Assembly: GCA_030612005.1 (NCBI GenBank)
Contig: JAUWOU010000002.1
Span: forward strand, 915-64,914
Length of the DNA stretch: 64,000 bases
Source of the DNA: Candidatus Thorarchaeota archaeon
GTDB lineage: Archaea; Asgardarchaeota; Thorarchaeia; Thorarchaeales; Thorarchaeaceae
Reading direction: 5' to 3'
Shown one piece after another: positions 5,058 through 35,717 of this stretch (position 1 is the first letter of the stretch; each line of letters opens with the position of its first letter). The translations under genes were made by a program, and so were the position numbers. The notes beneath the pieces were generated by a model, which had not been told where the DNA came from, ran no database searches, and worked only from the letters and a program-made list of their open reading frames with translations.

Positions 5058-6506
5058 TTAAGAGCAGTGTATGAATTCTTTGTAACGACCTACTGCTTTC
5101 TCTAAACGCTTCTTTGTTACCTTAAGATTTTCAATCTGCATAGATGATTTGCCTAGATCATTGAGCAAATTATTCTCGTCTTCAGGTGTTTTGCAGTCTG
5201 AATCCAATAACATCAGAATCGATAATCGTAGACTCTCTAATAATTTCGGGGATAGTTCAGATGCTTTATCTTCATCTACCTCATTGCCATGAACAAAATC
5301 ATTCCGAATTTTATACCCCTCATAGACATTACTAAAAACTTCAGATCGATTACACCCTAAACATTCCAATAAAATAGCAACTCTTGTTGAGAGCGTAAAA
5401 CGTAGCTCAGGAGACTCTCTTTGAAGAATGGTTTCCAACCCGATTATGGAAAATAATATGGATTCAAGAGTAGGCCGTTGTGATGCTTCATTAAGCATTT
5501 TAAGTGCTCTCGCTACTCTCATGAGATTTTTTTCCTTTTTCATTCTAGTAATATACTCAGGATAGGAGGAGTTTCTAACAAGATCGTAAACCTGTAGATG
5601 TTCTTCTTTGAAATATGAGTAATCATAGACACCAAGTTTCAAAAGAAATCGTTCAACAGGTAATCGATTGTCTATAGATGAACTATATAGTACATGATCT
5701 GTTTCAGCAAACCAAGAGGAATATTTCCACTTTCCTCCTACTGCTAGTCTTAGAATCTCTATCTCTTTCTCTATCATACTGACTATTTTCTGATAATTAT
5801 CATAGAACTTGAAATGATATCCACGAGGAATTCCACTAGCCATAAATTCCAACACAGATGAAACTGCAATTACTGTTGATTCTTTCACCTCAGAAGGAAT
5901 ATTCGGCTGAGTGTTTGGTACACGAGGTACTCTAAAAGTCTTGAAGTCACTAGCCACAGGTAGTCTAATCGTTACTCCGTCTATTGAATATCGAATCTTA
6001 CTGACAAGACCGTTCAAAAATACAATACAACGCCAGTCTGTCGGTACTTGCATAATTTCATCATACGCAGTTTGTATTATTTCTTGTTTCTTTTCTGGAT
6101 GATTTATGAGTCGTTCTAGATAGTGATATGCACCAATTGAGCCATCATCCAGAAAGACACTTCCAACAATCTCTTTCAGTTCTTGAAAGAGAGGCTTAAC
6201 TTCTGTCAGTATCATTAACCTTGCATTTCGACTCAATGATTGTATTTGTTCAGACTGCCCTGGTTTGTATTGTACCGAAACTCCAAATTCGCCACCAGGT
6301 GTGATTGTAGGATGGTAGACCAAATATAGTTCAGTCCTTTTTTCTTCATCAGGAATCGATTTTATCATTGAAACAACTGATTCTGCAAATTCTTCAAGCA
6401 CAGATTTTGCTTCTTTGGGTGAATGTCTGTCTGATTTCATTACATTTCCCTCCATAATCAGAATATTCATTTTTACACTAATCAATGTTGATGAAAACAC
6501 TACCAC
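5058..6506 (-). CDS. Large protein with a C-terminal HEPN-like domain (Rx4H motif). The true start is probably an internal Met near 6440 (MKSDRHSPKEAK).
   Basis: C-terminal region ...LSTRVAILLECLG...YEGYKIRNDFVHGNEV... carries the R-x4-H signature of HEPN RNase domains in an alpha-helical context. The motif is encoded at about 5281-5320. The N-terminal 350 aa have no recognisable family. Confidence 0.55.
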   Translation of the reverse strand: MVVFSSTLISVKMNILIMEGNVMKSDRHSPKEAKSVLEEFAESVVSMIKSIPDEEKRTELYLVYHPTITPGGEFGVSVQYKPGQSEQIQSLSRNARLMILTEVKPLFQELKEIVGSVFLDDGSIGAYHYLERLINHPEKKQEIIQTAYDEIMQVPTDWRCIVFLNGLVSKIRYSIDGVTIRLPVASDFKTFRVPRVPNTQPNIPSEVKESTVIAVSSVLEFMASGIPRGYHFKFYDNYQKIVSMIEKEIEILRLAVGGKWKYSSWFAETDHVLYSSSIDNRLPVERFLLKLGVYDYSYFKEEHLQVYDLVRNSSYPEYITRMKKEKNLMRVARALKMLNEASQRPTLESILFSIIGLETILQRESPELRFTLSTRVAILLECLGCNRSEVFSNVYEGYKIRNDFVHGNEVDEDKASELSPKLLESLRLSILMLLDSDCKTPEDENNLLNDLGKSSMQIENLKVTKKRLEKAVGRYKEFIHCS

Positions 6507-6575
6507 TCGATTTCAGATATTGAAGGTGGCGAACACACAATTAATCCCAACCCCTCCATAAAGCAACGATATCTC

Positions 6576-7307
6576 TCACACCTTGAGTCCAATACCCTTG
6601 ACTGTAATCTCGTAGGGAATCACATCCATCGAGTGCATGGTCTCTCGCATTTTGACAATACGAAGTTTCCTACTTACAGTCATATCCTTTTCATCATAAC
6701 CTAATCTGATTACTCCATGTGACGCATAGCGTTCTACTCCTACTCCTGCCTGATCTAACTCTGAAGTAAGAATAGTTGTTAGGGAGAGACGAGTAAGGAC
6801 TGCGGTTAGACTGAGAACACCATTTCTTCGCTCGGTTCCTTCCATTCCATCAAGAAGTGCTGAAACTGGATCAATCACTAAACGCTGTGCATTTATCTCT
6901 TCTTTAGCTTCGGTTATTAATCGGGTCACTTCTTCAATACTGAACTTGCCTATTGGTACAGCAAGCTCAAGATTGGGTTTTAGTCCAAGTCGACCAGAAA
7001 ATGCATCGATGATTTTGAGTTGTTTAAGATCCATTAATCGTTGAAGATTCCATCCAAAGGCAGAGGCCTCTCTCATCACATCAGTCGGACTCTCATCTAG
7101 ACATACAAGAATTGCTGGTTCAGGGTCTTTTGGATTCTCAAGAATTCCAGCAATGAGAAAGTGTAATGATAGTATTGTCTTACCTGTTCCTGGAAGTCCT
7201 TCAACAAGAGTTGTGCGTCCTCTTGGAAATCCCCCTAATAACATCTCATTCAATTCTTTGATTCCGGTGCTACATCTATCCGTCTGTTTCAATGGTTTCA
7301 CCTTCAT
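6576..7307 (-). CDS. KaiC-like / RadA-like single-domain RecA-superfamily ATPase
   Basis: N-terminus GIKELNEMLLGGFPRGRTTLVEGLPGTGKTILSLHFL carries Walker A GLPGTGKT. Walker B-like ILVCLDE. About 240 aa, typical of archaeal KaiC-like proteins. Confidence 0.8.
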   Translation of the reverse strand: MKVKPLKQTDRCSTGIKELNEMLLGGFPRGRTTLVEGLPGTGKTILSLHFLIAGILENPKDPEPAILVCLDESPTDVMREASAFGWNLQRLMDLKQLKIIDAFSGRLGLKPNLELAVPIGKFSIEEVTRLITEAKEEINAQRLVIDPVSALLDGMEGTERRNGVLSLTAVLTRLSLTTILTSELDQAGVGVERYASHGVIRLGYDEKDMTVSRKLRIVKMRETMHSMDVIPYEITVKGIGLKV

Positions 7308-7893
7308 TTGTTATAGTTGGGTGTTTGAGTAAGTGCCACTTATGACTGAACTTTCCATTGTCTGATTCTCTTGTAACGTCAATGTAGTTGGTGGCAATAT
7401 ACTTCAGAGTAGCAAGACCTCGGTCAGAATGTACTCCCTTTGCTACAAATGCCAAAAATCGAACCTTTGAGAAGTCCTTAGCAATAATACGTAAACATCG
7501 ACTGATCTCTTCATCTGTAACCCCTTGGGCTACCATATCAGAAGGAGACCACCACAACCACCATGATGCTTTGATTGACTCAGCTAGCTTTCCTAGGCGA
7601 TTAAGAACTCCTTTTGTATCTGCAGGATTCTCTAAAAAGTTTTCACTATCATAATCACTCACACGTTGGCGAAGTGAATCTCGCGCAGTGGGTTCATGCC
7701 TAGTGGCGTCAATGAGAGTTGTGTTTTCTATATCAGTGTCTATTGGTTTGGAGTGGATAATGGCTTGAGAATCTTCCCCGATATCATCACGTATTTGCTT
7801 TAGCACCACATACTCTGCTTCAATTGGAAAACTGATGATACTTAGGCCACTGGTTCCAAACCATTTGTTCAATGGGATTGTAGTAATCTTCAA
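7276..7893 (-). CDS. Hypothetical protein (205 aa), translationally coupled between the HTH regulator and the KaiC-like ATPase
   Basis: Overlaps the upstream gene by 4 nt (7890-7893) and the downstream gene by 32 nt. No family recognised. Confidence 0.5.
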   Translation of the reverse strand: MKITTIPLNKWFGTSGLSIISFPIEAEYVVLKQIRDDIGEDSQAIIHSKPIDTDIENTTLIDATRHEPTARDSLRQRVSDYDSENFLENPADTKGVLNRLGKLAESIKASWWLWWSPSDMVAQGVTDEEISRCLRIIAKDFSKVRFLAFVAKGVHSDRGLATLKYIATNYIDVTRESDNGKFSHKWHLLKHPTITNEGETIETDG

Positions 7894-8435
7894 CTCCTCC
7901 TTCCTGTTTCTGTAGAAATAGTCGATTCGGAATCATCTATTGATGAAGATTGGCTATACATAGGAATACCATGGACCTGATCAAGAAGATGGGCAGTGAC
8001 AGAATCCCTTGCCATGTTTTGTTTACGAGAAATGGTAGTCTTCAATGTGTCAATATCTGTTGTCATTGTGATACAGTTTACCTGTAGCTCGTTCTGAATT
8101 TGATACACATAGACTGTTAGAGGTACATGTCCAACACCAGTCTTGAGAAAATCTATGAGGCCCTTGATGGTTGATTCCAATTCAGTCTGAAACTGGTATA
8201 GATTCGAATCAATGAGCACTTGAACTAGATATGGTTTCCCGAATATTGAAGGAATAACCTCGGGGATATATCCCAACACAAGACCATCCTCTTCCAACTT
8301 CCTGGTACGATACAGGGCTGTAGATTTGGGGATGTCCAATGCACGACCTAATGCAGCTGGACTACTTTTCACGGAGTTTCGCAATGAGAGAAGTGTAGCT
8401 GTCCAATCACCAATTGTCTTCTTCTGTTGACCCAA
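7890..8435 (-). CDS. Lrp/AsnC-like winged-HTH transcriptional regulator, first gene of the operon
   Basis: SPAALGRALDIPKSTALYRTRKLEEDGLVLGYIPEV matches the AsnC-type HTH pattern (LA..vGlS.st...Rv.rLee.GvI.gY). It is followed by a YLVQVLID region resembling a RAM-like domain. Confidence 0.6.
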   Translation of the reverse strand: MGQQKKTIGDWTATLLSLRNSVKSSPAALGRALDIPKSTALYRTRKLEEDGLVLGYIPEVIPSIFGKPYLVQVLIDSNLYQFQTELESTIKGLIDFLKTGVGHVPLTVYVYQIQNELQVNCITMTTDIDTLKTTISRKQNMARDSVTAHLLDQVHGIPMYSQSSSIDDSESTISTETGRRS

Positions 8436-29646: not shown

Positions 29647-29940
29647 GTGACAGAATCACTCCATTACGAAGCTTTCTTATTGTCGGATGTGTCGCCTCGA
29701 TTAGCGATGTCCGACCTCTCAAAAAACTCTCAGTGTGTACTCAAGGTTCTTGAAACTGCAGACTCCCTAACAACAACCGAGATCCTTGAGATTGCCCGTA
29801 AAAAGAAGTATGCCGACATATGCACAGACTGTGCTGGTGGCGATGCTTTCGTAGCTGCTGCCAACCAACTCGTTGAGATGGGTCTTGTCACTAAGAAGTT
29901 TGGCAAGGGAGGCTATCGGTGGCATTTGGTAAAAGGTTGA
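29647..29940 (+). CDS. Small hypothetical protein, possible winged-helix
   Basis: 97 aa. VLKVLETADSLTTTEILEIARKK resembles a wHTH helix. Weak evidence. Confidence 0.3.
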   Translation: MTESLHYEAFLLSDVSPRLAMSDLSKNSQCVLKVLETADSLTTTEILEIARKKKYADICTDCAGGDAFVAAANQLVEMGLVTKKFGKGGYRWHLVKG

Positions 29941-31187
29941 TTTACATGGTTGACTGGACTAAAATCAGGAAAGACTTCCCAGCCCTTGAACGTAGAATTA
30001 ACGGTCATCCAGTAGTGTATCTGGATAGTGCATGCATGGCACTCAAGCCTAGACAGGTCATCGATGCTATGAATGAATACTATGAGATGTATCCCGCTTG
30101 TGCTGGAAGGAGTATCCATAGATTTGGTGAGGAGGCTTCTAACGCATATTCTGCAGCTCGAGGTAAATTTGCCAAGTTCTTGAATGCTGCCCAAGAAGAA
30201 GAATGCATCTGGACTAGAAATGCTACAGAATCTCTCAATATTGTTGCAAGCTCAGTTAAACTGCCAAAAGGTTCCAAAATCATCACAACGTCTCTTGAGC
30301 ATCATAGTGGTTCTCTTCCATTCGTTGAGAGAGCAAAAAGAGACGGTCTAGAGATTGAGATAGTCAAAGCTCAGATGGATGGAACTTTTGATATCGAAGA
30401 CTGGAAGAGTGCAATTGACAACAATACAAGTCTAGTATCTGTTGTTCATTCTTCTAATGTCACAGGCACAATATCTTCAATGAAAGATATCGTTGAGATT
30501 GCACATGATCGAGGAGCTATAGTGATGTGTGATGACGCTCAGTATGCCCCTCATCACCCACTTGATGTTCAAGAAATGGATGTAGATTTTTCATGTATTT
30601 CAGTCCATAAAATGTGTGGACCCACTGGAATGGGCGTACTCTATGGAAAGATGGAACATCTCGAATCAATGAACATGGCTCTATATGGTGGGGACACGGT
30701 TAGTGATGTTAAATTTGAGAATGGACAGATACTTCCTGAATATCTTCCGCCTCCTGAGAAATTTGAGGCGGGTCTGCAGAATTATGCTGGTGCAATAGGT
30801 GCAGGAGCTGCAGCTGAATATCTTCAAGCAATTGGAATGCATGAGATTGAGAAACATGAACGTTCTCTCCTCAAAGTTGCGCTGAAAAGACTGCTTGATA
30901 TGGAACATGTACACATCCTTGGAACAGATAACATCAACATCAAAACTGGTCTAGTAACTTTTAGTGTTGATACTGTCCCTTCAGCACATGATGTGGCAAC
31001 ATTCCTCAATGATGAATTCAATGTTATGGTTCGCAGCGGTGCTCATTGCGTACATCCATTTCATCATCAGTTGGGTATTCCAGTAGAAAGAGGAACTGCC
31101 CGTGCAAGTTTCTATCTGTACAACAATATGGAAGATGTCAAAACATTTCTTGATGGTCTAGAAACACTTCTTGAAGCAAGTAGTTAG
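29919..31187 (+). CDS. Cysteine desulfurase (class V aminotransferase, SufS/CsdA-like)
   Basis: HHSGSLPF, VVHSSNVTG, the PLP-lysine region SVHKMCGPTGMGVLYG, and C-terminal RSGAHCVHPF (catalytic Cys). Confidence 0.85.
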   Translation: MAFGKRLIYMVDWTKIRKDFPALERRINGHPVVYLDSACMALKPRQVIDAMNEYYEMYPACAGRSIHRFGEEASNAYSAARGKFAKFLNAAQEEECIWTRNATESLNIVASSVKLPKGSKIITTSLEHHSGSLPFVERAKRDGLEIEIVKAQMDGTFDIEDWKSAIDNNTSLVSVVHSSNVTGTISSMKDIVEIAHDRGAIVMCDDAQYAPHHPLDVQEMDVDFSCISVHKMCGPTGMGVLYGKMEHLESMNMALYGGDTVSDVKFENGQILPEYLPPPEKFEAGLQNYAGAIGAGAAAEYLQAIGMHEIEKHERSLLKVALKRLLDMEHVHILGTDNINIKTGLVTFSVDTVPSAHDVATFLNDEFNVMVRSGAHCVHPFHHQLGIPVERGTARASFYLYNNMEDVKTFLDGLETLLEASS

Positions 31188-31192
31188 GTTTC

Positions 31193-33202
31193 TTATTTAA
31201 ACCTACTAGGAAGATGCCGTTCAAAAAGTCCCCACTTGATGGCTTTATTCACACTTCTCATCTTCCTTTTATGATCCGGAGGTGCAATCTTGACCCAAAT
31301 AGCCGCATCTCTGTTCCTGCTAGTAGTACATGACCAAAGTAGTGATATTTTTCCAGTTTCAGGATACAAAACCACTCTATCCCAGCGTCTTGTAATACTG
31401 ATAGCGAAATGCTCGACAATCTTCTTTTCACTTTCAAGGAGTCTACTTTTATTCTCCTTTATCATCTTGTGAAATCGTTGAGCTTCAGTTGCAATCTCTG
31501 AATCAGAATCCATCATCAATTTATCTAATTCTCCTTTTGTTATCACGATTTGTTTAGTTGGTTCTTCTTTGATAGAATAAGGATTCTTGAAATCTGTCGT
31601 TTTTCTTTTACCATGTTCAATGATAAATTGTTGTTCAGAATTCCCAATCCGCGATTCCAAACCGTATTTTTCCATTTTCCCACTATACAAGGTAACGGCA
31701 CGACTCCATTTAAACCTCCAACCACCTCCTTTGAACGAGAAGCTCCCATCTTCTGCAATCAACTGGCTTAGGTACTCTTGTTTGACTCTATTAGTTCCAT
31801 CTTTGATTACCTTGGGGAGGTCTGAATTGAGGATGCTTTTGTCACCAATAGGCATTCCCCATACCGCTAACATTCGACCGAATACAGCAGGTAATCCAAT
31901 AACATGGCCATCTTTTCTTTTAGATTCCCAATATTGAATTTCACCAAGCTGGCTAATTATTTCCTTGAATCTTCTAAGACGGACTTGGTCTTTCTCGTAA
32001 TAATGAGCCGACATTTTTGGTCTAAGATGTCCATCACTCATCATCGCACCAATTAATTGAGCTCTGATTATCTCTATATCTAATGGAAACTCTGGGTTCT
32101 CAATATTGCCTCTCCCACGTTTTGCACCAAAGCCCGAAATGTGTTTGATAGATTGAACATCTTGAATGTCCTTTCCGACCACATCTAGAATAAATCCAAG
32201 TGTTTCTCCTGTTAGATAATTACTTGATTTTCTGAGTTCATTTCTATCAGATCCTTGAGTGACGTTTCTAGTTTCTTCCGCAAATTGATTCAGTAATCTT
32301 CCAAAATCTCGACGACTAATACCTCCAAGATGAAGAAGAGCATTTTCAACAATTCTATTCTTTGCTTCAGAAGATTCGAAATGAAAATGATCGACAGCGT
32401 GTATATCTGTCCAACTATTAATACCTGGCACGCATCTATGGACATAAAGTGTATCATTTACTATTCCAATTCTCAGGCTATTAGTATCTAATTTGTTTTT
32501 GACCTCTCCCTGATTTCGCGTAATGTAATCAGATACACCCCTATACCATTGTGTTCCAAGAGTGGAGTATGGTCTCAAATTCGTATAATAGAATCGGATA
32601 TTTTGTGGCACTTGTTCGTCTAAACCAATTATCATTGATGCTACTTGTTGAAAATCCAATAGTTCGAATCTGAATTTCTTGAATGAATGATATACAAGAG
32701 AACAATCTATACAATGTTCTTGTGCCTCACATGGCACTTCCCGTTCACAATCAATCCTATCAGCCTCAAGTTTCTCAAGTATCCTTAGACCAAAAGGCCT
32801 TACTTCTCTGTAAGACCAATCATTAAACGATGAGTCAGGAATCCCATAATGTACCGCTAACTCCTTTCTTTGTACTCCCTCTGGAATTTTCCCCGTCTTC
32901 TTATCATCCTTCATTCTGAAATATCCAGCAATCTCTCGCAATTCCTTCTTTGCATCCATCCTTTCCATGAAAGAAGGATTTCTTTGTAAAACCTCTTGGA
33001 ATTCATCATAGGTTTCAATTCTCGAATTGAGGTTTCTCTCTCGTGCATTAATTTTTCCTATATTCTCTCCTTCCAGTGAAGGCTTAATCTTAGATAATTT
33101 GTCGTGATATTCTCTGATTATTTCATCTCTTTCTTCAGGAGTTAATCGTCTACCCTTTTTCTCTGAATCTTCGGATAAATCGTATTCTCGAGTTTCTCTC
33201 AA
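31193..33202 (-). CDS. Free-standing LAGLIDADG-type homing-endonuclease-like protein with two LAGLIDADG-like motifs and a long N-terminal extension
   Basis: AQLIGAMMSDGHL and YLSQLIAEDGSF resemble paired LAGLIDADG motifs. No intein splice-junction context. The N-terminal 55 aa are paralogous to the N-terminus of the 15309..16733 protein. Confidence 0.55.
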   Translation of the reverse strand: MRETREYDLSEDSEKKGRRLTPEERDEIIREYHDKLSKIKPSLEGENIGKINARERNLNSRIETYDEFQEVLQRNPSFMERMDAKKELREIAGYFRMKDDKKTGKIPEGVQRKELAVHYGIPDSSFNDWSYREVRPFGLRILEKLEADRIDCEREVPCEAQEHCIDCSLVYHSFKKFRFELLDFQQVASMIIGLDEQVPQNIRFYYTNLRPYSTLGTQWYRGVSDYITRNQGEVKNKLDTNSLRIGIVNDTLYVHRCVPGINSWTDIHAVDHFHFESSEAKNRIVENALLHLGGISRRDFGRLLNQFAEETRNVTQGSDRNELRKSSNYLTGETLGFILDVVGKDIQDVQSIKHISGFGAKRGRGNIENPEFPLDIEIIRAQLIGAMMSDGHLRPKMSAHYYEKDQVRLRRFKEIISQLGEIQYWESKRKDGHVIGLPAVFGRMLAVWGMPIGDKSILNSDLPKVIKDGTNRVKQEYLSQLIAEDGSFSFKGGGWRFKWSRAVTLYSGKMEKYGLESRIGNSEQQFIIEHGKRKTTDFKNPYSIKEEPTKQIVITKGELDKLMMDSDSEIATEAQRFHKMIKENKSRLLESEKKIVEHFAISITRRWDRVVLYPETGKISLLWSCTTSRNRDAAIWVKIAPPDHKRKMRSVNKAIKWGLFERHLPSRFK

Positions 33203-33342
33203 TTCTTTTCCTTCCCAAGGATATCAAGTCACATTTGGAACTCTTGTGTATCGGTCATCAAATCATCATTATATTCTTACTATATATTCACCTTGATAAT
33301 CCACACGTAATTTTCTATTCGATTGAAAAATATCTTGGAATA

Positions 33343-33480
33343 GTTATTCCATTTCACTATCAGATGGGAATTGATCCAAAGAAAGGCACAGCCCGTGCAA
33401 GTTTCTATCTCTATAATAACATGGATGATGTCAAAGCATTTCTTGATGGTCTAGAAACACTCATTGAAGCAAGTGCCTGA
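33343..33480 (+). pseudogene. Displaced, diverged copy of the 3' end of the cysteine desulfurase gene (last ~40 codons)
   Basis: ...PFHYQMGIDPKKGTARASFYLYNNMDDVKAFLDGLETLIEASA versus the sufS C-terminus PFHHQLGIPVERGTARASFYLYNNMEDVKTFLDGLETLLEASS. Estimated at about 85-90% nucleotide identity over about 100 bp (hand alignment). Upstream of 33343 the ORF has no sufS similarity. Confidence 0.7.
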
Positions 33481-33533
33481 AGTAACTAAAGTCTGCTCCT
33501 TTCTTTAGGTGCAGGCTCTATTTTGTTCTCGAT

Positions 33534-35717
33534 TTAGTTTGTTTCCTTCTGAATTACTTCTTTTAGACGTTTAATCTCTTGAAGAGGATCTGCAAACTCA
33601 AAACCATTTGAAGATATTTCGATAGAATCTCCAAACTTCTTGATTCGTCCATACATTGCAATGTATCTACCGCGTATCTTGTCAGAGGTTGCTTGAATAG
33701 GTTCGTCCTCTTTGCCTGATTTGGCAATCAGTTTTTGAGCCTCCTCAGCGGTCATTCCTAGAAGTTTTTCACCAACAATACCGAACAAAGTTGCTCTTAT
33801 CGAACCTGAACCATCATCGATTGTAATCTTGTAGAGCATTCGTGGTTCTGGTTTTTCCACTTTTCCACATGATTTACAACTATACCCGTCATCAACAGCC
33901 TCAAGTTTTTTGTTGCATGTTGGGCACGCTTCGTAGAATACCCGATTCTGTCCCATGTCAACTATTATTCCGCAGACTTCGACGTTCTTACCTTCACTAG
34001 CTTCATCAATTTCACCAATAAGAACCCTTGACGCCTTAGTTGCTACAGTTTCAAAGGCAACATCTGATAGATCTAGTTGCTTAAGATCAGAATCCTCTGG
34101 ATTCAGTAAAATCTCTCCCTTACGACCTACTTGATACTCTAATCCCCCTCTATATCCTTCTTTCACATAACCGTGGAGAATCCTAATCACGTCGCCCTCT
34201 TGAACATCAGCTACTTTTTCTACATCTTCACCCCAGAAGGTTACTCTGATTTTGCTTGTCTGGTCCGCAATTACTACATTTCTTAACTGACCTTCAGCTC
34301 CATCTTTTCTTGTGAAAGTCTTAACATCGTAAGCAGTTACTACCTTACCTTCTATATCAACATCTCTCATTTCAACGGAAAGATCTGAAATGCTTATTTT
34401 TCCAAGGGGTTCAGAGCTACCTCCAGTTCCTGATGCTGAAGATGCATTTTCAGTAATCTTTGACAAATCAAGCTGTTTCAGTTTTGACCCCTTTGGGTTC
34501 AATTCAACCTTTGAACTCCTTCCAAATTGATACTCAACTCCACCTCTGAAACCTTCTTTCACATAACCATGGAGGATTCTGATTATATCGCCTTCCTTTG
34601 CTTTTGCAATGTGTTCATTATCTTCACCCCAGAAGGTCACTCTGATATTGCTTGTCTTGTCTGCGATGACAATATTTTGTACCTGTCCTTCACCACCATC
34701 CTTTCGTGTGAAGGTATTCACATCATAGATTGTTGCAATCTTACCTTCGATATCTACATCATTCATTCCGGTTTCCAAATCTACAATATCCTTCATTCCA
34801 AGTGGTTCTGAACTGCTTGAGTATTTTGGAGTTGATTCTGCAGTGTCGATTTTGTCCTTAAGTCCCCTTTCAATAACTGTTGATTTACCTACATGAATTT
34901 CTATGTCATCCCCATCACGATTTGGACGAGTATATGCATGATTTACTCCAATGACTTCTCCAGGTTCGATTCCTTCGACTTCGTCTGCTTTATCGTCCCA
35001 AAAAACAAGGCGTGAGCTTCCAGAATTGTCTGCGACAACCATTGCGAGTACTTTTCCTTCACTACCATCCTTTTTGTTGAATGTTGAAACTCTGAACACT
35101 CTTTGTATCTCTACCTTGAGAGAAACATCATAGGTGTTTTCCTGAAGATCGCTTATTTTCATTTCATCTTTAGATGTAGCACTGAAATCAACACCAAGTT
35201 CTTCAATCTCATCATTTTCAAGTGGTTTGATTGTACCCCTCTGACCTAGATTAAGTTCAATCGTATTACCGAGTCCTGGTTTAACATATGCTCCTCGTAC
35301 CTGAATGATACTTCCAACCGATATGTGATCTTCGGATACTGCCTTGGTCATTTCATCCCAAAGTGCAACTCTGATACTACCAGTTTCATCTGAGATGAAG
35401 ATACTAGCTACCTTTCCTTCCCCACCATCTTTTCGTGCGAAAGTTCGTACTGTACCTATTCTATCGACCCTACCCACAAGTCCTGCAACATTCTTGGTTG
35501 ATTCAGTAATATCTTCTATTCTCTGGCGCGCACTTGGTGACATTTTATGCAAATCTACACCTAGTTCTCTTGCCACAATCATGGCTGCTGATTCATCATT
35601 GATGACTTCCGGACCTAGTTCATTACGTTTATCCTGAATCATTGTAAGGATATCATTTCGTTCGTGGTCCGATTTATGCTTTAGAATTAATTCAATTGTT
35701 TCTTCAAGAGTGAGCAT
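33534..35717 (-). CDS. rpa: Replication protein A (RPA) with multiple OB folds and a C4 zinc ribbon
   Basis: Three near-identical OB-fold units (…RKDGGEGKV…IRV.FWG…) plus CPTCNKKLEAVDDGYSCKSCGK. Confidence 0.8.
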   Translation of the reverse strand: MLTLEETIELILKHKSDHERNDILTMIQDKRNELGPEVINDESAAMIVARELGVDLHKMSPSARQRIEDITESTKNVAGLVGRVDRIGTVRTFARKDGGEGKVASIFISDETGSIRVALWDEMTKAVSEDHISVGSIIQVRGAYVKPGLGNTIELNLGQRGTIKPLENDEIEELGVDFSATSKDEMKISDLQENTYDVSLKVEIQRVFRVSTFNKKDGSEGKVLAMVVADNSGSSRLVFWDDKADEVEGIEPGEVIGVNHAYTRPNRDGDDIEIHVGKSTVIERGLKDKIDTAESTPKYSSSSEPLGMKDIVDLETGMNDVDIEGKIATIYDVNTFTRKDGGEGQVQNIVIADKTSNIRVTFWGEDNEHIAKAKEGDIIRILHGYVKEGFRGGVEYQFGRSSKVELNPKGSKLKQLDLSKITENASSASGTGGSSEPLGKISISDLSVEMRDVDIEGKVVTAYDVKTFTRKDGAEGQLRNVVIADQTSKIRVTFWGEDVEKVADVQEGDVIRILHGYVKEGYRGGLEYQVGRKGEILLNPEDSDLKQLDLSDVAFETVATKASRVLIGEIDEASEGKNVEVCGIIVDMGQNRVFYEACPTCNKKLEAVDDGYSCKSCGKVEKPEPRMLYKITIDDGSGSIRATLFGIVGEKLLGMTAEEAQKLIAKSGKEDEPIQATSDKIRGRYIAMYGRIKKFGDSIEISSNGFEFADPLQEIKRLKEVIQKETN

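Follow-up and report, generated by a model that had tools for sequence, protein, structure and literature searches.

The fungal mitochondrial mORF hybrids are the closest precedent of the element described here. In these hybrids, an endonuclease open reading frame (ORF) of the LAGLIDADG or GIY-YIG type is inserted without an intron or intein and contributes a foreign, in-frame C-terminal segment, and the displaced native C-terminus is nearer to close relatives than the inserted copy is (PMC3630166). They form in atp6, atp9, cox2, and nad3 of Glomus sp. mitochondria (PMC3630166), and an atp6 mORF hybrid of Allomyces macrogynus is included in the summary that the same source gives (PMC3630166). 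The present analysis concerns a 64,000-nucleotide (nt) stretch of DNA, hereafter the window, from a Candidatus Thorarchaeota archaeon (GCA_030612005.1, contig JAUWOU010000002.1, forward-strand positions 915 to 64,914). Positions 31041-33348 are very probably a 2.3-kb homing-endonuclease element inserted in the essential chromosomal cysteine desulfurase gene sufS, at the codons of the active-site loop (RSG-W-H-C-V-G-PFH). Its parts are (i) a 48-codon replacement sufS end in frame with host codons 1-374, (ii) an antisense gene for a 669-residue protein, and (iii) the upstream region of that gene.

The sufS element shares with the mORF hybrids the foreign in-frame C-terminal segment and a native C-terminus displaced beyond the endonuclease ORF. 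It differs from them in that (i) its ORF is antisense, whereas mORFs are in phase or co-transcribed with the host gene, (ii) it resides in an archaeal chromosome, flanked by PolD, RPA, and Lhr genes, rather than in an organelle, (iii) its enzyme is a 669-residue multidomain LAGLIDADG protein from a family without a Pfam or other curated model, and (iv) its relatives also replace a 5′ end (uvrB) and the 3′ half of a tRNA.

In the “intronless homing” of the T4 seg/mob genes (e.g., mobE), a free-standing endonuclease gene adjoins its target, and break repair co-converts flanking markers (PMC2790892). The sufS element is likewise a free-standing endonuclease gene adjoining its target and is proposed to spread by double-strand-break repair with co-conversion. 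The T4 enzymes, however, are of the GIY-YIG or HNH type and lie between genes, so that the target coding sequence is uninterrupted and no replacement end is carried. In “fractured genes”, a free-standing endonuclease gene sits between gene halves bearing split inteins (PMC2677866). Here too a conserved gene is interrupted by a free-standing endonuclease gene and a compensating device keeps it functional; in sufS, function is restored by a duplicated gene end with no intein, unlike the split-intein trans-splicing of fractured genes. The archaeal LAGLIDADG enzymes of rRNA introns and inteins (I-DmoI, I-Tsp061I, PI-PfuI, and the TliVMA intein endonuclease) differ from the 669-residue protein, whose ORF is not within an intron or intein, which is longer by ~370 N-terminal and ~100 C-terminal residues, and whose similarity to them lies below Pfam and PDB profile detection. 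Published work on Asgard mobile elements makes no mention of such elements, as far as a non-exhaustive literature search extends.

Architecture of the sufS Element

A repeat search of the region recovers one long direct repeat, 31055-31181 versus 33348-33474 (127 nt, 83% identical, spacing 2293), and all remaining repeats are at most 30 nt. Over the 132 nt that run from the Pro380 codon through the stop (31056-31187 versus 33349-33480), the two copies of the sufS end are 79.5% identical and agree in 33 of 43 residues. The codon differences comprise 9 synonymous and 10 non-synonymous changes, and 14 of the 27 mismatches fall within the first 45 nt. The likeness stops at the stop codons, beyond which the sequences are unrelated. 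The original prediction, which had been made from the letters of the window, held that the 3′ end of sufS recurs downstream as a displaced copy; the repeat bears this out, and the similarity persists on proper alignment. Its count of 27 identical residues in 31 is exact for the last 31 codons, and its estimate of 85-90% nt identity is somewhat high for the whole repeat.

The 669-residue ORF, with a putative TTG start codon, occupies nearly the entire interval between the two copies and runs antisense to sufS, with 5 nt between its stop codon and that of sufS. An intein- or intron-borne endonuclease was considered and rejected, as the ORF is encoded on the other strand and is located beyond the stop codon of the hybrid gene. 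Comparison loci, drawn from related genomes and metagenome assemblies, bear L-numbers, and coordinates without an L-number are those of the window. The features of the locus are as follows:

29919-31040, plus strand: host-derived part of sufS (codons 1-374), 94-95% identical in nt to L004, L008, and L009, with a synonymous divergence (dS) of 0.18-0.27 that equals the background host divergence
31041-31187, plus strand: probable element-borne replacement sufS 3′ end (codons 375-422 plus stop), delimited by a jump in mismatches against L009, with the first difference (TGG>GCT) at 31041
31193-33202, minus strand: predicted free-standing LAGLIDADG endonuclease gene, 669 residues, antisense to sufS
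33203-33333, minus strand: AT-rich upstream region of the element, presumably with the promoter of the ORF, low in GC and missing from empty sites
33334-33348, plus strand: short piece interpreted as decayed target (compare TGG CAT TGC GTA GGT)
33349-33480, plus strand: displaced native sufS 3′ end (codons 380-422 plus stop), a promoterless remnant that matches the L009 empty-site allele nearly base for base
33481-35717, minus strand: right host flank, made up of the native sufS-RPA intergenic region (33481-33533), which aligns with empty sites, and the RPA gene (33534-35717), 94-95% identical in nt to L004, L008, and L009

The GC content is 0.345-0.352 in the intervals 33000-33399 and 33200-33599 versus 0.40-0.46 in the flanks. 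The window is archaeal, and the element is surrounded by genes for an Lhr-type helicase, Elf1, SufS, RPA, and the PolD large subunit. The product of sufS (29919-31187, plus strand, 422 residues) matches Aminotran_5 with E = 2.6e-116, and it scores 433.9 bits (E = 5e-130) with the SufS subfamily model TIGR01979, whose curated cut-off is 475.1. The hybrid product has the same length of 422 residues as the proteins of empty-site relatives. The RPA gene product contains OB folds and Rep_fac-A_C (Pfam).

Origin of the Two sufS Ends

The naive site of L009, which carries no element, has the sequence ...CGAAGCGGTTGGCATTGCGTAGGTCCATTTCACTATCAAATGGGAATTGATCC..., and its allele reads ...RSGWHCVGPFHYQMGIDPKKGTARASFYLYNN.DDVKAFLDGLETLIEASA*. 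The downstream copy in the window corresponds to this allele nearly base for base, through the TGA stop and on into the intergenic region with its hairpin that precedes RPA. In the window, the in-frame sufS end reads ...RSGAHCVHPFHHQLGIPVERGT...EASS* and is followed by unrelated sequence. Compared with L009, sufS of the window has 61 differences in the first 1130 nt (5.4%) and 30 in the last 139 nt (22%). The first foreign base belongs to the TGG>GCT change at 31041 (W375A), 15 nt upstream of the duplicated segment and two codons before Cys377 (TGC, 31047-31049), which we take to be the catalytic cysteine on account of the SufS “HC” active-site motif.

As the downstream copy matches L009 and the in-frame end is of foreign origin, the host gene originally ended with what is now the remnant, and the element brought the end that functions today. 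The original prediction had proposed both, namely, an original 3′ end left as a remnant and a replacement end brought by the insertion. The former agrees with the downstream copy and its 3′ untranslated region (UTR), which match the L009 allele and the clade state WHCxGPFHYQMGIDPKKGT, as the in-frame end does not; the latter agrees with the foreign, in-frame sequence from codon 375 onward. The converse, that the remnant is the incoming copy, is settled in the negative, since the remnant is of the host type.

Relative to the naive allele, the cassette carries the changes W375A, G379H, Y383H, and DPKK>PVER. The element-type motif AHCVHPFHHQLGIPxExGT is present in the occupied loci L004 and L083 and closely so in L007 (PIFK), and the L001 cassette has AHCVHPFHYQMGISPTKGT in its place. 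Occupied alleles have an altered and split target (TGG>GCT, GGT>CAT; the left half-site of the remnant is element sequence), together with co-conversion. The latter had been invoked for the divergence of the two copies as a whole, and it explains the extra upstream changes (W375A, G379H); the main cause is that the cassette stems from another lineage of sufS. In the window, the cassette is itself a mosaic with a strongly divergent stretch of the first ~45 nt, a middle near the host type, and element-type last codons. Its middle (31101-31180, versus 33394-33473) is much nearer to the host-type remnant than are the cassettes of L004, L083, and L007, which suggests gene conversion between the two repeats within the window lineage.

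Upstream of the remnant, positions 33334-33348 read cttggaatagttatt in the window versus gttggcattgcgtaggt in the host, and the corresponding piece is clearer in L001 (TTG TTG TGC ACA GGT) and L083 (GCA GGT). These 15 nt may represent an older, decayed copy of TGG CAT TGC GTA GGT that travels with the right end of the element. Such a pattern would be seen if the stretch of target bordering the break moves with the element. The reading frame of the remnant is kept in every lineage, which is weak ground for selection on it: a run of 43-45 codons free of stops has no small probability, and the remnant in the window is simply young.

Occupied, Empty, and Apparent Footprint Alleles

A scan with the sufS protein, restricted to one genome per species, recovered ~60 syntenic loci, with Thorarchaeota (Asgard archaea) as the host lineage. 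In ~50 Thorarchaeota species, the convergent RPA gene directly follows sufS and no element is present. The nearest relatives of the window, L008 and L009, are both empty, with protein identities to the window of 96% and 95% for sufS and 95% and 96% for RPA, respectively, and ~94-95% nt identity for both genes. The uninterrupted order of sufS and RPA, foreseen for element-free relatives if the insertion is mobile, is therefore the common one, and the opposite outcome, an arrangement shared by all related genomes with no allele free of the homing endonuclease gene, is contradicted by the same ~50 species. Presence and absence alternate at exactly the same site among close relatives, as is characteristic of a homing endonuclease gene.

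The sufS-RPA gap measures 15-60 bp in nearly all syntenic loci and ~350-400 bp in a few. The longer gaps were considered as relics of the element and rejected, as they contain an unrelated ORF of 111 residues. This ORF lies on the minus strand between sufS and RPA at L014:9284-9619 and also in L015-17, L021, L024, and L025.

The occupied loci and the state of their ORFs are as follows:

Window: intact
L004 / L005: frameshifted into 408 + 268 residues, in two independent assemblies
L083: intact, 673 residues
L007: intact, 675 residues
L001-3 (= L044): N-terminally truncated, with two extra genes in the insert
L084: premature stop

In all occupied loci that reach both junctions, the displaced sufS 3′ fragment adjoins RPA and starts at the same codon (PFHYQ...). 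The insert of L001 (L001:6838-11119 = L002, L003, L044, L080) is 4.1 kb long, and its LAGLIDADG ORF lacks the N-terminal ~290 residues. Between the ORF and the remnant, it holds a gene for a 699-residue Roc/Ras-like GTPase fused to a Schlafen AlbA_2 domain, as well as a 213-residue ORF with no family match. The two extra genes may be a secondary insertion or cargo.

Site states were mapped on a neighbor-joining tree of the sufS body upstream of the RSG motif (~codons 1-371). The window clade comprises ~25 species, all of which have WHCxGPFHYQMGIDPKKGT (two with single substitutions) except four: the occupied window and L004 and the empty L008 and L010. The two empty exceptions are hybrid alleles of the element type from codon 375 to ~400 (AHCVHPFH[HY]QMGIP[VI]E[QR]GT) and of the host type thence through the stop and UTR. 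To judge from their sequences, they are consistent with footprints of a lost element. Such footprints could arise by loss of the element through recombination between the two repeats or by repair of the cut site with the cassette as right-hand homology.

The cluster of the window, L004, L008, and L009 appears to hold all four stages, i.e., intact, degenerate, footprint, and naive. Across the occupied loci and the hybrid empty ones, the stages of a homing cycle are represented by intact (window, L007, L083), frameshifted (L004, L005), premature-stop (L084), truncated (L001), and apparently lost (L008, L010) copies. Between the window and L004, the element ORFs are 75.9% identical in nt versus 94.3% for the sufS bodies and 94.5% for RPA; the history of the element is therefore decoupled from that of its hosts.

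Across Thorarchaeota (L008-L067), residues 375 and 379 are strictly paired: W, V, or F occurs with G (once A), and A occurs with H (rarely N or Y). Both combinations turn up in scattered parts of the tree. Structural coupling, repeated conversion by the element, or the two together could account for this. Residues 375 and 379 lie on either side of the catalytic cysteine and may be structurally coupled, which would explain why a conversion tract needs to include both.

The 669-Residue Protein and Its Family

No match to the 669-residue protein was found in Pfam, NCBIfam, or PHROGs, and PDB searches by phmmer and with profiles gave nothing usable. The curated models of the class (Pfam LAGLIDADG_1/2/3 and Hom_end) thus do not recognize it. 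Its assignment comes from an AlphaFold2 model built on a 76-sequence alignment (predicted local distance difference test, pLDDT, 91.3; predicted template modeling score, pTM, 0.85), for which the best Foldseek match is the TliVMA intein (7qsu, E = 6e-6). In the model, residues ~371-565 form a two-domain LAGLIDADG core with the superfamily fold, i.e., two alpha-beta-beta-alpha-beta-beta-alpha domains packed via their LAGLIDADG helices (residues 376-390, LIGAMMSD390GH, and 471-484, LSQLIAED485GSF). The core is preceded by an N-terminal region (residues 1-370) with a helix-turn-helix-like stretch and followed by a C-terminal extension (residues 566-669). A structure search with the N-terminal ~370 residues found no structural neighbor. 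The protein is thus predicted to act as a LAGLIDADG endonuclease monomer that has both domains in one chain and, in addition, a large N-terminal region.

The positions of the catalytic acids are preserved throughout the family alignment. Residue 390 is D in 76 of 76 members, residue 485 is D in 54 members and E in the other 22, and the Gly after the catalytic acids is kept in 49-70 of the 76. Acidic helix ends in every member argue for an active nuclease rather than a degenerate DNA binder. The ORF is under purifying selection: between the window and L083, both of which are intact, the ratio of non-synonymous to synonymous divergence (dN/dS) is 0.21 overall, with 0.27 for the N-terminal region, 0.17 for the LAGLIDADG core, and 0.09 for the C-terminal extension.

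Only 6 homologues of the protein are present in the indexed database, and a search of that database with the 76-sequence profile returned known close relatives only. An exhaustive profile search extended the family to at least 563 cluster representatives (50% identity), with 202 at E<=1e-30. Many of these matches form the C-terminal part of proteins of 900-1600 residues. Members that were looked up all lack a name or are called “hypothetical protein”, and one is from Kariarchaeaceae, another Asgard lineage; all members with an assignable host belong to Asgard archaea. A metagenome scan with the family query A2 gave 3 loci, 2 of them already known. A hidden Markov model search of the window and of ~1 Mb of Thorarchaeota loci found no further member of the family.

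Proposed Homing Mechanism and Alternative Explanations

LAGLIDADG endonucleases cut site-specifically at sites of 14-40 bp and leave 4-nt 3′ overhangs. The enzyme of the sufS element would cut the naive allele in or near ...GGT TGG CAT TGC GTA GGT CCA TTT CAC TAT CAA.... The break would then be repaired from an occupied allele, such that the cassette and the endonuclease gene are copied in and neighboring bases are co-converted. A functional hybrid sufS would result, in which W375A, G379H, Y383H, and DPKK>PVER would abolish the target. The native 3′ end would be pushed 2.3 kb downstream, where the remnant would escape cutting since its left half-site is missing, and neither an intron nor an intein would be needed. 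What we infer is that the enzyme cleaves, where exactly it recognizes its target, and that the hybrid allele is immune; the architecture, the presence/absence polymorphism, the native remnant, the foreign cassette, the decoupled histories, the degenerate copies and apparent footprints, the LAGLIDADG fold with intact catalytic acids, and the purifying selection on the ORF are the observations that carry this reading.

Several points weigh against homing by such an enzyme. In relatives of the protein, LAGLIDADG_3 is detected only below threshold (E = 0.007 and 0.08), and no Pfam LAGLIDADG model reaches threshold. AHCVH is also apparently the native state in more distant Thorarchaeota clades, for which reason L008 and L010 could in principle be products of allelic recombination free of any element. 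Lastly, all close homologues lie at the same sufS-RPA junction, which makes a single old insertion with many later losses conceivable.

An old insertion of this kind, vertically inherited and immobile, is unlikely. It would entail that most lineages lost the insert via repeat recombination and that the LAGLIDADG protein was domesticated, e.g., as a WhiA-like DNA-binding regulator. The LAGLIDADG domains of WhiA are unlike the 669-residue family in their catalytic acids, both positions of which are invariant or acidic in all 76 members. Furthermore, between the window and L004 the element has diverged ~4 times as much as the host. The closest relatives lack the insert, the naive allele prevails throughout the clade, some copies are frameshifted or truncated, and relatives at unrelated targets have the same layout of duplicated ends.

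Less probable still is a minimal integrative element moved by a site-specific recombinase, with the two sufS 3′ copies as attL and attR. Integrase-driven elements classically integrate at a gene 3′ end and provide a replacement end, and the tRNA gene targeted in L006 is likewise typical of them. However, no recombinase domain is found by sequence or fold, LAGLIDADG being the sole recognizable catalytic domain, and the junctions have a different anatomy. The remnant is wholly of the host type, the cassette is wholly foreign, and foreign bases extend 15 nt upstream of the repeat, so no crossover took place within a shared core. The integrase and att-site model was rejected on these two grounds, as the locus lacks the hallmarks of integrase elements. 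Homing fits the upstream foreign bases, the wholly host-type remnant, and the lack of a shared att core, and a conservative site-specific recombinase does not; of the two routes named in the original prediction, a homing-type invasion is thus preferred over an integrase-type one. An assembly artefact or chimeric contig as the cause of the apparent duplication can be dismissed for practical purposes. Most of the related loci, like the window, do derive from assembled metagenomes. However, the same architecture recurs in at least five independent assemblies, which stem from different samples and host lineages and all have sequence particular to their lineage. Besides the window, four independent occupied loci of different assemblies and hosts carry the same duplicate.

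Related Elements at Other Target Genes

Distant family members share the geometry of the sufS element, with an antisense ORF, an interrupted target whose 5′ part is convergent with the ORF stop, and a duplicated gene end. At L006:1-2100 (JGI Ga0315536_1001072), a distant member with 27% identity is associated with a tRNA-Met target. An intact, intron-containing tRNA(CAU) at 1994-2096 on the minus strand ends 10 nt from the ORF stop, and a displaced tRNA 3′ half (anticodon loop to acceptor end) lies upstream of the ORF start, at the contig start. L081 has the same displaced tRNA half; its other side is rearranged, with a different tRNA-Met that has two introns. In L006, ARAGORN detects 0 tRNAs and Rfam two intron-containing ones (1994-2096 and 2720-2824). 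The tRNA at L081:2107-2243 was read by eye, with apparent introns after the anticodon loop and in the T-loop, and is missed by Rfam and ARAGORN-type detection.

At L085:4808-9488 (JGI Ga0566186_0000255), an AMP-binding (acyl-CoA synthetase-like) gene adjoins the stop of the antisense family ORF (6001-7932), and a displaced 93-residue AMP-binding_C fragment on the far side is 62% identical to residues 430-518 of the AMP-binding enzyme. The L085 insert also holds a 196-residue ORF without known function. At L087:3-3376 (Logan SRR31155648), it is the 5′ end of the target, uvrB, that is present twice: an 82-residue uvrB N-terminal fragment with the Walker A motif adjoins the ORF stop and is 69% identical to the uvrB start on the far side. 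This arrangement implies that the element supplies a replacement 5′ end plus promoter.

Three further loci neither support nor contradict the pattern. L086 has a 103-residue uvrB N-terminal fragment (L086:10334-10645) near a 1210-residue family member, with no second uvrB copy within reach of the locus. At L089:6001-15151 (NCBI GCA_975965375.1), a 1559-residue family member ends 6 nt from a convergent S-adenosylhomocysteine hydrolase (AdoHcyase) gene, and no displaced AdoHcyase fragment was found in the locus. The family ORF of L088 is at the contig end. Large ORFs without known function (up to 1165 residues) precede the long family ORFs of L086, L088, and L089, which hints at larger composite elements, and a Cas12f1-like/TnpB gene lies 2.3 kb away in L089.

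Taken over these targets, the balance tips slightly toward a strategy common to a large family, namely, antisense insertion into conserved, often active-site-coding positions of essential genes, repaired by a replacement gene end that the element carries. If this is true, sufS and the acyl-CoA synthetase gene would receive a new 3′ end, uvrB a new 5′ end together with its promoter, and tRNA-Met a new 3′ half.

Implications for Asgard Archaea

Cellular homing endonucleases are usually thought to need an intron or intein for tolerance inside essential genes. Replacement of the gene end is a third solution, seen here in an archaeal chromosome and hitherto documented mainly in fungal mitochondria. 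A single clade documents its naive, intact occupied, degenerate, and apparent footprint alleles. The analysis also brings to light a sizeable protein family that current profile libraries miss, with a LAGLIDADG core, intact catalytic residues, and a novel N-terminal region. Because the target can be read from the naive allele, its members are candidate rare-cutting nucleases with long, predictable target sites.

Should the strategy hold for the family at large, its big (~600-1600 residues), free-standing LAGLIDADG endonucleases would represent an intron- and intein-free homing route in cellular chromosomes. As a by-product, segments that encode active sites would pass from one species to another, and mosaic alleles such as those of L008 and L010 would be left in their wake, a process that might even account for the patchy WHCxG/AHCxH dimorphism of Thorarchaeota sufS. 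For Asgard genomics, the finding cautions against reading gene-end fragments and mosaic alleles close to such ORFs as annotation noise or ordinary pseudogenes, since selfish elements produce them.

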